A DNA stretch of 64,000 nt, from NCBI GenBank assembly GCA_965209205.1, contig CBDBQC010000004.1, positions 902,167 through 966,166 of the forward strand, in the 5' to 3' direction. Of this stretch, positions 56,785-59,816 are shown piece by piece (position 1 is the stretch's first letter; the number at the start of each line of letters is the position of its first letter). The notes under the pieces are model-generated. The model saw only the letters and a list, made by a program, of their open reading frames with translations. It was not told where the DNA came from and did no database searches. A program made the translations under genes and the position numbers. The stretch comes from Dehalococcoidia bacterium. GTDB taxonomy: Bacteria; Chloroflexota; Dehalococcoidia; Bin125.

Positions 56785-57657
56785 GTGAGCCCCGTCGCTG
56801 TGGTGGACGTCACCGACGCCAGCTTCGAGCGGGAGGTGGTGGCGCGGTCGCACGAGATGCCGGTGATCGTGGATTTCTGGGCGCCGTGGTGCGGCCCCTG
56901 CCGCATCCTGGGCCCGGTGCTCGAGTCGCTGGCCGAGGAGTTCGCCGGGCAAGTGCAACTGGCCAAGCTGAACACCGATGAGAACCCGTTCGTATCGCAG
57001 CAGCACGGCATCGAGAGCATCCCGGCGGTATTCGCCTACCAGGACGGGCAGCCGGTGTCGCAGTTCCTGGGCGCGCTGCCCGAGCCGCAGGTGCGGGAGT
57101 TCGTCGAGGCGCTGCTGCCGTCGTCGGCCGACAAGGCGGCGGAGGAGGCGGAGGCGCTGGTCGAGCAGGGGCAGCCGGCGGCGGCGCTGGAACGCTTCGA
57201 GCAGATCGTCGCCGACGACCCGAGTCACGAGGGCGCGACGGCGATGCTGGCGCACCTGGTGCTGCAAGGCGGCGACGAGGCGCGCGCCGAGGAGTTGGCG
57301 AACCGCGTGCCCGGCAACAAGGGCGCGAAGCGCACGCTGGCGACGATCCACCTGCGCCGTGCGGCCCGGGGCCAGGACGAGGCGGCGCTGCGGGCGCGGC
57401 TGTCGGCCGACGCGGGCGACGCGGGCGACGCCGCGGAGATGTCAGACGCCGAGGCGGAGTACCGGCTGGGCGCGCTGCTGGCCGATCGGGCGGAGTGGGA
57501 CGAGGCGCTGGAGCGGCTGCTCAACTCGGTGCGGCGCGACCGGTCGCTGCACGACGACGCGGCGCGCCGGCTGCTGCTCGACGCCTTCGTCCTGCTGGGC
57601 GACGACAGCCCGCTGACGCAGGACTACCGACGGCGGCTGGGATCGGTGCTGTTCTAG
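56785..57657 (+). CDS. thioredoxin-domain protein with a TPR-like C-terminal domain (YbbN/CnoX-like)
   Basis: VIVDFWAPWCGPCRILGP active site, followed by a helical Ala/Glu-rich repeat region. Confidence 0.85.
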   Translation: MSPVAVVDVTDASFEREVVARSHEMPVIVDFWAPWCGPCRILGPVLESLAEEFAGQVQLAKLNTDENPFVSQQHGIESIPAVFAYQDGQPVSQFLGALPEPQVREFVEALLPSSADKAAEEAEALVEQGQPAAALERFEQIVADDPSHEGATAMLAHLVLQGGDEARAEELANRVPGNKGAKRTLATIHLRRAARGQDEAALRARLSADAGDAGDAAEMSDAEAEYRLGALLADRAEWDEALERLLNSVRRDRSLHDDAARRLLLDAFVLLGDDSPLTQDYRRRLGSVLF

Positions 57658-57734
57658 CGCCGGCCGCAACGGCCGATGGGAAGCGGGGCGCCGGCGGCGC
57701 CCCGTTCGTCGTCTGTGGGAGTGAGCCGGTGGCC

Positions 57735-58064
57735 CTATTCCTCGGCGGCGTCGTCGCCGGCCTCCTCGCCGGGGCGGGCACGGGCGGAGATGGCCCAGGC
57801 GACGGTCGCGCCGGTTGCGAGGAGGAAGATGCCGGGGACGATGACGGCGATGGCGAGGCCCGCGCCGCTGACGTGGAAGGGATCGTCGGAGGCCTCGTCG
57901 CCGGCGGCGTCGAGGACGGGCGTCTCGGCCAGCGCGCCGTCGGCGGCGGCCGCCGCGACATCGCCCGCCGGCAGGCTCCAGGCGGCCACGACGAGGCCGA
58001 GCATGAGCAGCGCCAGCAGCAGTGTGCGGGGCCCAACCCCATCGCGCAGGCGGACGAGAACCAT
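57735..58064 (-). CDS. hypothetical membrane protein (N-terminal signal/TM helix and C-terminal TM helix with an acidic tail)
   Basis: The ATG at 58064 has a GAGGGGA Shine-Dalgarno sequence. MVLVRLRDGVGPRTLLLALLMLGLVVAAWS...GLAIAVIVPGIFLLATGATVAWAI...EEAGDDAAEE. Strong third-position GC bias. Confidence 0.5.
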   Translation of the reverse strand: MVLVRLRDGVGPRTLLLALLMLGLVVAAWSLPAGDVAAAAADGALAETPVLDAAGDEASDDPFHVSGAGLAIAVIVPGIFLLATGATVAWAISARARPGEEAGDDAAEE

Positions 58065-58100
58065 CGTGGCGACTCCCCTCAAAATCCGGGTCCAGTGTCG

Positions 58101-58135
58101 CGCGGGGGCGGGGACCGGTCAACCGATGGGGCGTC
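58101..58135 (+). repeat. 35-bp direct repeat copy 1 (cgcgggggcggggaccggtcaaccgatggggcgtc)
   Basis: Identical to 59136..59170. An 11-nt cagtgtcgcgc lies immediately upstream of this copy (58093..58103, its last 3 nt overlapping the repeat) and also occurs at 59086..59096, about 40 nt upstream of copy 2. Confidence 0.9.
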
Positions 58136-58213
58136 GGTCGTTGACGTCCGTTCGGCCGCACGGGACACTCGGCGGGCGCTAGACTGGGGGCGCGAGCGAA
58201 TGGGGGCACGACG

Positions 58214-58501
58214 ATGACAATGACCTTCGACACGCGCCGGGCCGTGCAGAAGCTGGTCGGGGTCGGGGTTGACGACAGCCACGCCGACGCGATCGTCGAG
58301 GTGGTCGGAGACGCCACGAGCCCGCTGGTGACGCGGGATATCCTGCGGGCGGAGCTCAAGGATCTGCGGTCGGAGCTAAAGGCGGAACTTAGCGAAGTGC
58401 GGGCGGAGTTCCACCGCGCCCTACTGATTCAGGCCGGCGTCGTGCTGGCGGGGGTGGCCGCGATCGCGGCGATCGCGACGCTCCTGGCCAGGCTCGGGTA
58501 A
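58214..58501 (+). CDS. DUF1640-like small tail-anchored coiled-coil protein (full length)
   Basis: MTMTFDTRRAVQKLVGVGVDDSHADAIVEVV..., then a coiled-coil and the TM helix AGVVLAGVAAIAAIATLL. Confidence 0.75.
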   Translation: MTMTFDTRRAVQKLVGVGVDDSHADAIVEVVGDATSPLVTRDILRAELKDLRSELKAELSEVRAEFHRALLIQAGVVLAGVAAIAAIATLLARLG

Positions 58502-58542
58502 GCGGAGGCCACCTCACCACGCCCTCCGCCCCGGATCCGACC

Positions 58543-58746
58543 TTACCCGGCCAACACCTCGATCGCCGCCACGCAGCTGAGAAACAGGATGGTCTGGCCG
58601 AGCAGCAGTGTGAGCGTCCACACCTTCATCTCGGACCGCATCGCGTCGAGCGCGGCCCTCATCTCTGCCCGCAACTCGTTGATCGCGACATGCAGATCGC
58701 GCACGTCCTCCTTCGTCGCGATGCTGGTGCTGACTGAGTAGGCCAT
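58543..58746 (-). CDS. 67-aa coiled-coil + TM protein (C-terminal half of the DUF1640 architecture)
   Basis: The ATG at 58746 gives MAYSVSTSIATKEDVRDLHVAINELRAEMRAALDAMRSEMKVWTLTLLLGQTILFLSCVAAIEVLAG. A 51-nt block (58669..58719) is nearly identical to 58902..58952. Confidence 0.6.
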   Translation of the reverse strand: MAYSVSTSIATKEDVRDLHVAINELRAEMRAALDAMRSEMKVWTLTLLLGQTILFLSCVAAIEVLAG

Positions 58747-58763
58747 TCCGCGCCGCGGCCAAA

Positions 58764-59072
58764 TCATCCCCAGAGCACGGCTGCGATTGCGAGGCCCGCG
58801 GCCAGGAAGGCCGCCGTTGCGGCGGTATAGGCTCCGAGTTGCAGCCAGAGCAAGCGCGTGAAGCGGGCCTCCATCTGCGCCATCGCCACGGCAAGTTCGG
58901 ACCGCAACTCGTTGATCGTGACATGCAGATCGCGCACGTCCTGCTTCGTCGCCAACCCCTCCTGGGCGTCCACGATCGCCTCCACCACGCCCTCCGCCTG
59001 CTCGGCGGTGTGCCCACGCCCACGCAGCGCCCTCACCGCCTTGGCCGTGTCGAACGTGATCCCAACCATCAT
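58764..59072 (-). CDS. DUF1640-like small tail-anchored coiled-coil protein (full length)
   Basis: MMVGITFDTAKAVRALRGRGHTAEQAEGVVEAI...ATKQDVRDLHVTINELRSE..., then a TM helix. Confidence 0.75.
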   Translation of the reverse strand: MMVGITFDTAKAVRALRGRGHTAEQAEGVVEAIVDAQEGLATKQDVRDLHVTINELRSELAVAMAQMEARFTRLLWLQLGAYTAATAAFLAAGLAIAAVLWG

Positions 59073-59135
59073 TCCCCCTCTGACGCAGTGTCGCGCACGA
59101 TGGCGCGGCCATGCAACGCATTATGGCACTGCGCA

Positions 59136-59170
59136 CGCGGGGGCGGGGACCGGTCAACCGATGGGGCGTC
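59136..59170 (+). repeat. 35-bp direct repeat copy 2
   Basis: Identical to 58101..58135. It is followed by TAGGCT-cgcccg-ATG of the methyltransferase gene. Confidence 0.9.
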
Positions 59171-59189
59171 CACCCGCTAGGCTCGCCCG

Positions 59190-59816
59190 ATGGCGAGTGA
59201 TGCAACCGATGCCGAGGCGACCCGGCGCGCGATCCGCGAGCGGCTGGCGCAGCCGCCCGTGGTCGAGGTGGCGCTGCCGGGCCGCACGCTGCGGCTGACC
59301 AGCGCCTGGGGCCTGTTCTCGGCGAAGGGGATCGACGAGGGGACGGCGCTGCTGCTGGGGGAGCTGATGGCGCTGCCGCCGGCGTCGCGGGTGCTCGACT
59401 TCGGCTGCGGCTACGGAGCGCTGGGGCTGACGCTGGCGGCGCTCTGGCCGGAGGCGGAGGTGGCGCTGATCGACAAGGACGTGCTGGCCGTGGAGGCCTG
59501 CGCGGGCAACATCGCGGCGGCCGGGCTGACGAACGCCCGCGCGTCGCTGAGCCCGGGCTTCCGCGACGCACCGCCGGGCCCGTACGACCTCATCGTCTCG
59601 AACCTGCCCGCGCAGGCCGGCAACGAGGCGCTCGACGCGATCCTGCTCGGAGCGTGGGAGCGGCTGGCGCCGTCGGGGTCGCTGGTGGTGGTGACGGTGA
59701 ACGGGTTGCGTCGTTATGTCCGACGACGGCTCGAGGCGGTGTTCGGGAACTACCACAAGGCGCGCCAGGGGCCGCGGCACACGGTCGCAGAAGGCATGCG
59801 CGGCGAGGACGGCTAG
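59190..59816 (+). CDS. class I SAM-dependent methyltransferase (RsmC/RlmG small-domain-like)
   Basis: VLDFGCGYGALGL (motif I), DLIVSNLPAQAG (in place of NPPF). Its stop overlaps the convergent cofC stop (ctag). Confidence 0.8.
   Translation: MASDATDAEATRRAIRERLAQPPVVEVALPGRTLRLTSAWGLFSAKGIDEGTALLLGELMALPPASRVLDFGCGYGALGLTLAALWPEAEVALIDKDVLAVEACAGNIAAAGLTNARASLSPGFRDAPPGPYDLIVSNLPAQAGNEALDAILLGAWERLAPSGSLVVVTVNGLRRYVRRRLEAVFGNYHKARQGPRHTVAEGMRGEDG

Follow-up and report, generated by a model that had tools for sequence, protein, structure and literature searches.

Identical direct repeats around a DUF1640/CCDC90-like gene cluster in a Dehalococcoidia bacterium: a probable old promoter duplication equalised by gene conversion

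Introduction

A 64,000-nucleotide stretch of the genome of a Dehalococcoidia bacterium (the window; G000:C4:902167-966166, on contig CBDBQC010000004.1 of assembly GCA_965209205.1) carries three small DUF1640-like genes between two identical copies of a 35-nt direct repeat, CGCGGGGGCGGGGACCGGTCAACCGATGGGGCGTC, with a membrane-protein gene on one side of the repeats and a methyltransferase gene on the other. Identical repeats around small genes make it tempting to see a fresh insertion, and the question raised by this locus is whether they mark the ends of a cassette that has only recently entered the site. A sequence-only reading of the window had leaned this way: it saw a cassette apparently inserted into the promoter region of the methyltransferase gene, with duplication of the target, and a gene family that is mobile or at least actively shuffling. 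Comparison with related genomes leads us to a different answer, which we consider probable: an old duplication of promoter DNA, homogenised by gene conversion, would bracket a resident cluster whose genes reshuffle with their paralogs, and the cluster would not be a new mobile cassette.

The window comes from an assembly of 2.71 Mb in four contigs that is 89% complete (G000). For the locus comparison we used six genus genomes and a single genome from each of two other genera in the family, and added eight contigs (L033-L040) retrieved through homologues of H1-A, one of the three genes. A conspecific contig from an independent assembly (L032, 98% identical) was also available. Table 1 gives the features and the names used for them.

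Age and probable homogenisation of the repeats

The two copies of the repeat, L and R, are both present at orthologous positions in 11 of 11 genomes and contigs that have the cluster layout (G000, G001, G004 and L033-L040). In these eleven, D+ adjoins the membrane-protein gene and an H1-type gene adjoins the methyltransferase gene. The flanks (thioredoxin-TPR protein and membrane protein, then methyltransferase and CofC) are collinear in all the genomes and contigs compared. L and R have a core of 25 nt in common, CGCGGGGGC[G/C]G[A/G]G[G/A]CCGGTCAACCG. The 10 nt after the core are side-specific in the relatives, reading CGGGGGCGTC or a variant of it on the left and ACGTCGGCTC or CGGCGAGCGA on the right; only in G000 does a single tail, ATGGGGCGTC, stand on both sides. 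In the eight genomes in which the right copy was found by a fuzzy 35-mer search, L and R differ at 6-10 of 35 positions, and the copies in L033-L035 are more diverged, with nothing beyond the 25-nt core in common. As related genomes hold diverged, side-specific copies, the duplication is older than the present species.

The sequence-only reading had itself named two findings that would speak against mobility. The first, a 35-mer that is a common dispersed repeat, is not what we observe: the 35-mer occurs at just two places in the whole assembly, even when 3 mismatches are tolerated, and is therefore not a dispersed repeat, and none of 100 shuffles gave such a match. Yet the second, the same arrangement with diverged flanks in related strains, corresponds to the state of the locus described above. 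A search of the seven genus genomes (G000-G006) for the 25-nt core, tolerating 2 mismatches, gave two copies in G000, G001 and G004, one in G002 and G005, and none in G003 and G006. Every copy lies at this locus, despite the 12-29 members of the gene family that these genomes carry (none in G003), which indicates that the repeat belongs to the locus and not to the gene family.

The L copy is conserved in 13 genus genomes and contigs, and its 11-nt centre is also found in a genome of another genus (G011). It is kept upstream of the membrane-protein gene where there is no R copy (G002), where the slot holds no D genes (G005) and, as the 11-nt centre, in G011. This argues that the left copy is the original.

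The perfect identity of the two copies in the window has to be viewed against this background. The R copy of G000 differs from that of G001 at 8 of 35 positions, within about 80 nt of flanking sequence that is almost identical in the two genomes, and all eight differences bring it to the L copy of G000 itself. The L copy of G000 in turn holds three R-type bases (A14, A26 and T27). Taken together, these changes make both G000 copies the same left/right chimera. As read from these alignments, a chimera on both sides is the signature of short-tract bidirectional gene conversion rather than of a duplicated target, and the 35/35 identity is a lineage-specific homogenisation of this species alone. 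The same right-hand 35-mer is present in the conspecific contig.

Features of the locus

The positions given by the sequence-only reading for the 35-mer, for the 11-mer CAGTGTCGCGC and for D+ and H1-A were all reproduced (Table 1).

Table 1. Features of the repeat-bracketed cluster and its flanks, in window coordinates
Feature	Position	Strand	Description	Basis or remark
Membrane-protein gene (left flank)	57735..58064	-	109 aa; acidic middle; no family assignment	conserved
CAGTGTCGCGC 11-mer	58093..58103			invariant in clade
L, left copy of 35-nt direct repeat	58101..58135		first 25 nt (58101-58125) are the genus-wide core	
D+	58214..58501	+	95 aa, full-length DUF1640/CCDC90-like: head TFDT..ADAIVE, neck variant LVTRDI, stalk, C-terminal anchor	PF07798 E=2.6e-4
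Headless B	58543..58767	-	74 aa from ATG 58767 or 67 aa from 58746: neck IATKED, stalk, anchor B, no head	start overlap
Shared 56-nt block, headless-gene copy	58664..58719	-	encodes ATKEDVRDLHVAINELRAE, beta-layer neck and stalk start	pairwise comparison
H1-A	58764..59072	-	102 aa: head H1, neck LATKQD, short B-type stalk start, then A-type stalk and anchor	sequence, AlphaFold2
Shared 56-nt block, H1-A copy	58897..58952	-	encodes ATKQDVRDLHVTINELRSE	central 30 nt absent from G004 orthologue
Second CAGTGTCGCGC	59086..59096		upstream of head-bearing minus-strand gene (H1-A)	
R, right copy of 35-nt direct repeat	59136..59170		core 59136-59160	last 10 nt differ in relatives, R-specific type
Methyltransferase gene (right flank)	59178..59816	+	MTS-type (RsmC/RlmG-like); TAGGCT box included, ATG 59190	conserved

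Putative promoter role of the repeat

A candidate -35/-10 pair, TTGACC-17 nt-GACACT, lies on the minus strand ahead of the membrane-protein gene, and the L copy contributes to it: TTGACC lies in the reverse complement of L and GACACT in that of the first CAGTGTCGCGC. GACACT also stands ahead of H1-A (TTGCAT-18-GACACT, together with TGCCATAAT) and of D+ (TTGACG-17-GACACT). The repeat may thus be a duplicated piece of the putative promoter of the membrane-protein gene. The old duplication probably once took in the CAGTGTCGCGC element as well, which is now parted from the R core by a conserved insert of 39 nt whose minus strand holds the TTGCAT and TGCCATAAT ahead of H1-A. By itself CAGTGTCGCGC is not rare (7 occurrences genome-wide against 4.2 expected). 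A strict scan for sigma-70 promoters and terminators found nothing, and a search of 57500-59400 against Rfam returned one chance miRNA match (E=0.18).

On the other side, the R copy ends 7 nt short of the TAGGCT box (59178-59183), and the methyltransferase ATG follows 6 nt further on. The juxtaposition that the sequence-only reading had described is present, with a 7-nt gap; it is the proposed insertion into this promoter that is not supported. The -10-like box placed exactly 6 nt before the ATG suggests a leaderless mRNA. The arrangement (59178-59192) is conserved, as TAGCCT-CACCCG-ATG in G002 and G005 and as TAACCT-CGGCCG-ATG in G011.

A promoter role raises the possibility that selection, and not conversion, keeps the copies alike. 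In this case the repeats would be a shared operator or promoter that co-regulates the membrane-protein/D+ and H1-A/methyltransferase pairs, and the 35/35 identity would be convergence under constraint. Across the clade the two divergent intergenic regions hardly vary, less than the genes beside them, which points to constraint, and the core holds the TTGACC box and an element CCGGT-CA-ACCG. But the outgroups express the methyltransferase with no R copy (G002, G005 and G011), and the last 10 nt differ stably between L and R in all the other genomes, so the constraint does not demand identity. The eight clustered changes in the R copy of G000, all toward its own L copy, are a signature of conversion and not of independent mutation. 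We regard selection as an unlikely source of the identity, and short-tract conversion in this species as the better account of it.

Recombination inside the cluster

The two minus-strand genes contain a block of 56 nt that is 93% identical between them. Its 51-nt core reaches 96%, the highest identity of any pair among the 18 family members in G000, and no alignment of the two genes extends beyond the 56 nt. The H1-A gene of G000 holds 30 nt of B-type stalk (DVRDLHVTINE) that its G004 orthologue lacks, which marks the block in G000 as a conversion patch and not as the remnant of a tandem duplication. The sequence-only reading had offered recent duplication or gene conversion for this block; the second of these is favoured by the 30-nt patch, and the first fails because the rest of the two genes is unrelated. 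A recent 233-bp tandem duplication was likewise ruled out, the likeness being limited to the 56 nt.

The same block can be seen as a recombination substrate in a relative. A single gene of G001 consists of the head and neck of the G000 H1-A gene joined to the stalk and anchor of the G000 headless B gene. Its two matches to G000 overlap by exactly the shared block, and 233 bp are missing. A deletion of this form is the product expected, from the sequences, of recombination between two direct repeats of 51-56 nt. Consistent with such exchange, head H1 (MVGITFDTAKAV...EAIVD) occurs with either of two unrelated anchors, A (...FTRLLWLQLGAYTAATAAF...) or B (...MKVWTLTLLLGQTILFLSCVAAIEVLAG), depending on the genome, and mosaic sharing of heads and anchors is also found among the 18 paralogs of G000, dispersed ones included. 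At least seven gene layouts occur at this single site (Table 2).

Table 2. Gene content of the slot between the membrane-protein and methyltransferase genes
Genome or contig	Layout
G000	D+, headless B, H1-A
G004	as G000; H1-A 92 aa
G001	D+, DUF5678-like gene, H1-B
L033	D+, second D+ paralog, B remnant, H1-A 105 aa
L034	as L033, with fragments
L035	D+, D+ C-terminal half, headless B, H1-A
L036 and L037	D+, partial-head B gene, H1-B 101 aa
L038 and L040	D+, second D+ paralog, H1-B 97 aa
G002	both minus-strand genes first, D+ last
G005	DUF5678-like gene (112 aa) and retropepsin-like aspartyl protease gene (148 aa), no D genes
G003 and G009	protein of about 800 aa, no Pfam match (L029:1932-4313; L031:1840-4239)
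G011	about 400 bp, non-coding

The view of an actively shuffling family of small genes is borne out by these layouts, by the swapped anchors and by the exact 233-bp deletion. The mechanism of the shuffling is probably nothing more unusual than homologous recombination and gene conversion among modules of the paralogs.

An alternative is that the 25-nt cores are att-like sites of a recombinase encoded elsewhere, and that the cluster is excised as a circle, in the manner of an integron, and then re-inserted or exchanged. This would account for the differing contents of the slot and for the permuted order in G002, where D+ and the minus-strand genes have swapped places and the intervening sequence is like a circle junction (R left flank, 11 nt of core, L right flank). 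Both ends of the cluster keep the core in all 11 genomes and contigs, and the 35-mer of G000 is itself composed as a circle junction, R-like in its left part and L-like in its right part. However, tandem duplication followed by deletions also explains G002, and excision and re-integration alone cannot yield identical chimeras at both sites. No genus genome has the core anywhere else, and L is just as well conserved in genomes where excision would have nothing to act on (G005 and G011). In its small genes between direct repeats and its variable slot the locus resembles integron cassettes and transposon insertions. It differs from both in that no integrase or transposase and no attC-like palindromes are found at the locus, in that its repeat is old and locus-specific, and in that the breakpoints between genomes fall inside genes, in the neck and stalk, and not at the cores; moreover, the repeats are direct and stand once on each side, not between individual genes. 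We therefore hold att-like recombination to be very unlikely.

Least tenable is the view that a mobile cassette of three genes recently entered the methyltransferase promoter and left a 35-bp target-site duplication, which we consider extremely improbable: although the flanking repeats are identical at 35/35 positions and unique in the genome, and although the slot is variable in the genus and family (other content or almost none in G005, G003, G009 and G011), ten other genomes and contigs hold the same cluster at the same site with both copies diverged in a consistently side-specific way, the 35-mer of G000 is an L/R chimera on both sides rather than a duplicated target, the other 12-29 family loci per genome lack the core, and usual target-site duplications are far shorter than 35 bp. 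None of the cluster-free slots, which have other content (G005, G003, G009 and G011), provides a precise empty site, and L is present in G005 and G011 with no cluster following it. Within about 5 kb of the cluster there is no transposase, integrase or other recombinase, as the sequence-only reading had noted; the genes in this range encode a glycosylase, a thioesterase, DHPS, toxin-antitoxin pairs, a zinc ribbon, thioredoxin-TPR, the methyltransferase, CofC, CofD and RDD proteins.

Identity and distribution of the gene family

The assignment of the genes to a DUF1640-like family, made from the letters alone, holds up in profile searches. A profile of 17 family members, drawn from G000 and its relatives, matches human CCDC90B (PDB 6H9M) with E=1.1e-5 over the head, TFDT..L...G....QAE, and 9 of the 17 individually match PF07798, the Pfam CCDC90-like family that was formerly DUF1640 (best E-value 3.5e-8). 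Homology of the head is thus established for the family by profile; the headless gene lacks this region by definition. The two full-length proteins of the window match PF07798 with E of about 1e-4 and 21-22 bits, under the curated cut-off of 33.5 bits.

According to Hartmann et al. (eLife 2016, PMC4786415), the stalk of prokaryotic and mitochondrial DUF1640 membrane proteins begins with the beta-layer motif [aliphatic]-A-T-K-[polar]-[D/E]. H1-A and the headless gene carry this motif at the corresponding place, and D+ has a variant of it (Table 1). An AlphaFold2 model of H1-A has two short head helices and one long helix spanning residues 43-101 (mean pLDDT 84.4; 84-95 over residues 41-100). 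The last 25-30 residues are hydrophobic in all copies, by which the anchor was judged, and the stalks of D+ orthologues differ by steps of 7 or 11 residues (81, 88 and 92 aligned residues). A long helix, a hydrophobic C-terminus and length changes of these sizes agree with a coiled-coil stalk and membrane anchor. Judged from these features, the products have a head joined by a beta-layer neck to a coiled-coil stalk, with a membrane anchor at the C-terminus; they may form trimers. This is the head-neck-stalk-anchor build that PMC8224590, citing Adlakha et al. (2019), describes for MCUR1 and CCDC90B. The D+ orthologues have dN/dS values of roughly 0.04-0.4, mostly 0.1-0.3, and values in this range, below 1, indicate real genes under selection.

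Other searches added little. Foldseek of the H1-A monomer model against the PDB gave no significant match, and single-sequence searches of the PDB returned noise. NCBIfam and PADLOC had no match for the three D proteins or the membrane protein, and PHROGs gave weak matches to an unannotated family and nothing else.

The existence of a half-length gene on the minus strand is confirmed, and its start is better placed at ATG 58767 than at 58746, where the sequence-only reading had put it. From 58767 the start codon overlaps the stop codon of H1-A as ATGA, and the gene call in L035 has the same 4-nt overlap. The headless orthologue in G004 has no internal Met, so that only the upstream start is possible there. 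We take 58767 to be the more likely start in the window, and the overlap of stop and start codons suggests translational coupling of the two genes.

An iterative search found 18 family ORFs, full-length and headless, in G000. Of the other six genus genomes, five (2.2-2.9 Mb) give 12-29 profile matches and G003 gives none. Most other genera in the family give 0-4, two stand out with 9 and 12, and 16 further families of the class give none; since the profile draws on genus members, distant ones may escape it. G003 is the most divergent member of the genus, and its recX-rny site is empty where G000 has another family cluster. The absence of matches and the empty site in G003 suggest that the family reached its many intergenic sites after G003 had split off. 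At the recX-rny cluster itself (38.4 kb in the window), a candidate flanking duplication was judged unconvincing: it matches at 16 of 19 positions, and about 12 nt are conserved around two different -10-like boxes. One paralog on another contig (G000:C3:356020-356568) has the D+ head in common with the window gene (76% nucleotide identity over 144 nt), and its product of 182 aa has a long stalk of tandem 11-residue-like units (AEFAEFRAATKAEAEAFRTDMR...).

The family of the window is like MCUR1 and CCDC90B in its TFDT...QAE head, in the neck at the start of the stalk, in the long single helix and in the hydrophobic C-terminal anchor. It differs in several respects: the window proteins are much shorter (67-102 aa), the genus has 12-29 copies per genome of 2-3 Mb, heads, stalk lengths and two unrelated anchors are recombined among these copies, and headless copies directly follow full-length ones, the start codon of the headless gene overlapping the stop codon before it.

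Discussion

Full-length and headless genes are mixed here in one cluster, bracketed by a conserved duplicated segment of putative promoter DNA. We propose that the slot between the membrane-protein and methyltransferase genes is the long-standing home of a small DUF1640/CCDC90-like cluster, and that the repeats are an old copy of part of the upstream control region of the membrane-protein gene, with the 25-nt core as what the two still have in common. The duplication would have bracketed the cluster since before the present species diverged; in this species alone, short-tract bidirectional conversion would then have homogenised the copies over 35 nt, and to this we attribute their 35/35 identity. 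Inside the cluster, change would come from homologous recombination among modules of the paralogs. The neck block of 56 nt is probably a conversion patch in which B-type sequence was copied into an A-type gene, and it would also act as a recombination substrate, at which in some relatives the 233 bp between the two blocks have been lost and the head has moved to the other anchor.

These features are consistent with concerted evolution by ectopic gene conversion and with deletion between direct repeats: the changes that equalise the copies are clustered, the tracts are chimeric, and the loss between repeats of 51-56 nt is exact. The tracts differ from the known dynamics in being very short (about 35 and 50 nt), with two of them inside one 1-kb locus, and the mechanism is here read from the sequence.

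Several points weigh against this interpretation. The window's own proteins fall below the curated Pfam cut-off. As both intergenic regions are highly conserved, the likeness of the L and R cores could partly reflect selection rather than conversion. The promoter role is suggested by conservation and by the spacing of hexamers, while the strict sigma-70 scan was empty. Finally, the order of events may have run either way: either a G002-like or a G000-like layout, and either the two-gene or the fused state, may be ancestral.

A broader role can be imagined, though we think it improbable in the full form given here. The DUF1640-like family of the genus could constitute a modular, fast-diversifying repertoire in which the conserved neck acts as a recombination joint, exchanging heads, stalk lengths and anchors among the 12-29 copies. 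Coupled headless genes might co-assemble with full-length ones into mixed trimers and so tune the number of heads per stalk, and the duplicated promoter might co-regulate the two ends of the cluster and perhaps drive cycles of duplication and deletion.

The locus corrects a tempting inference, since identical direct repeats around small genes appear here to be an old, fixed duplication equalised by gene conversion and not the trace of a fresh insertion. It also offers a single-locus view of evolution in the widespread and poorly understood family of human MCUR1 and CCDC90B, documenting module swapping at the neck, stalk-length steps compatible with a coiled coil, and the origin of headless copies. 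With 12-29 copies in each small genome, the genus could serve as a natural data set for the function of the prokaryotic members.

Further observations

Remnants and irregular genes are found in several slots. G005 keeps a remnant of the D+ promoter (GTTGACG), and the DUF5678-like gene inside the D cluster of G001 encodes 85 aa. In L034 (ERZ21829562 ctg258033l), a second D+ gene and an A-type anchor are present as decayed fragments, and the C-terminus of the D+ gene is extended and probably frameshifted. L033-L035 come from one sample and have identical H1-A genes with different interiors.

The flanks of G000 and L033 are 79% identical on the left and 90% on the right (56.6-57.9 and 59.2-60.4 kb, respectively). 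L035, L038 and L040 were also compared, and the comparison of flank identities leaves out the rows for L034 and L035, where the right flank was misplaced. The discordant identities could reflect recombination between lineages around the locus.

Past the thioredoxin and zinc-ribbon genes there is a second variable spot (L033-L040; 55397-56415 in the window). Here the relatives carry a Type IIG/ISP-like restriction-modification gene (N6_Mtase/Eco57I), and G000 has HepT/MntA and VapBC remnants.

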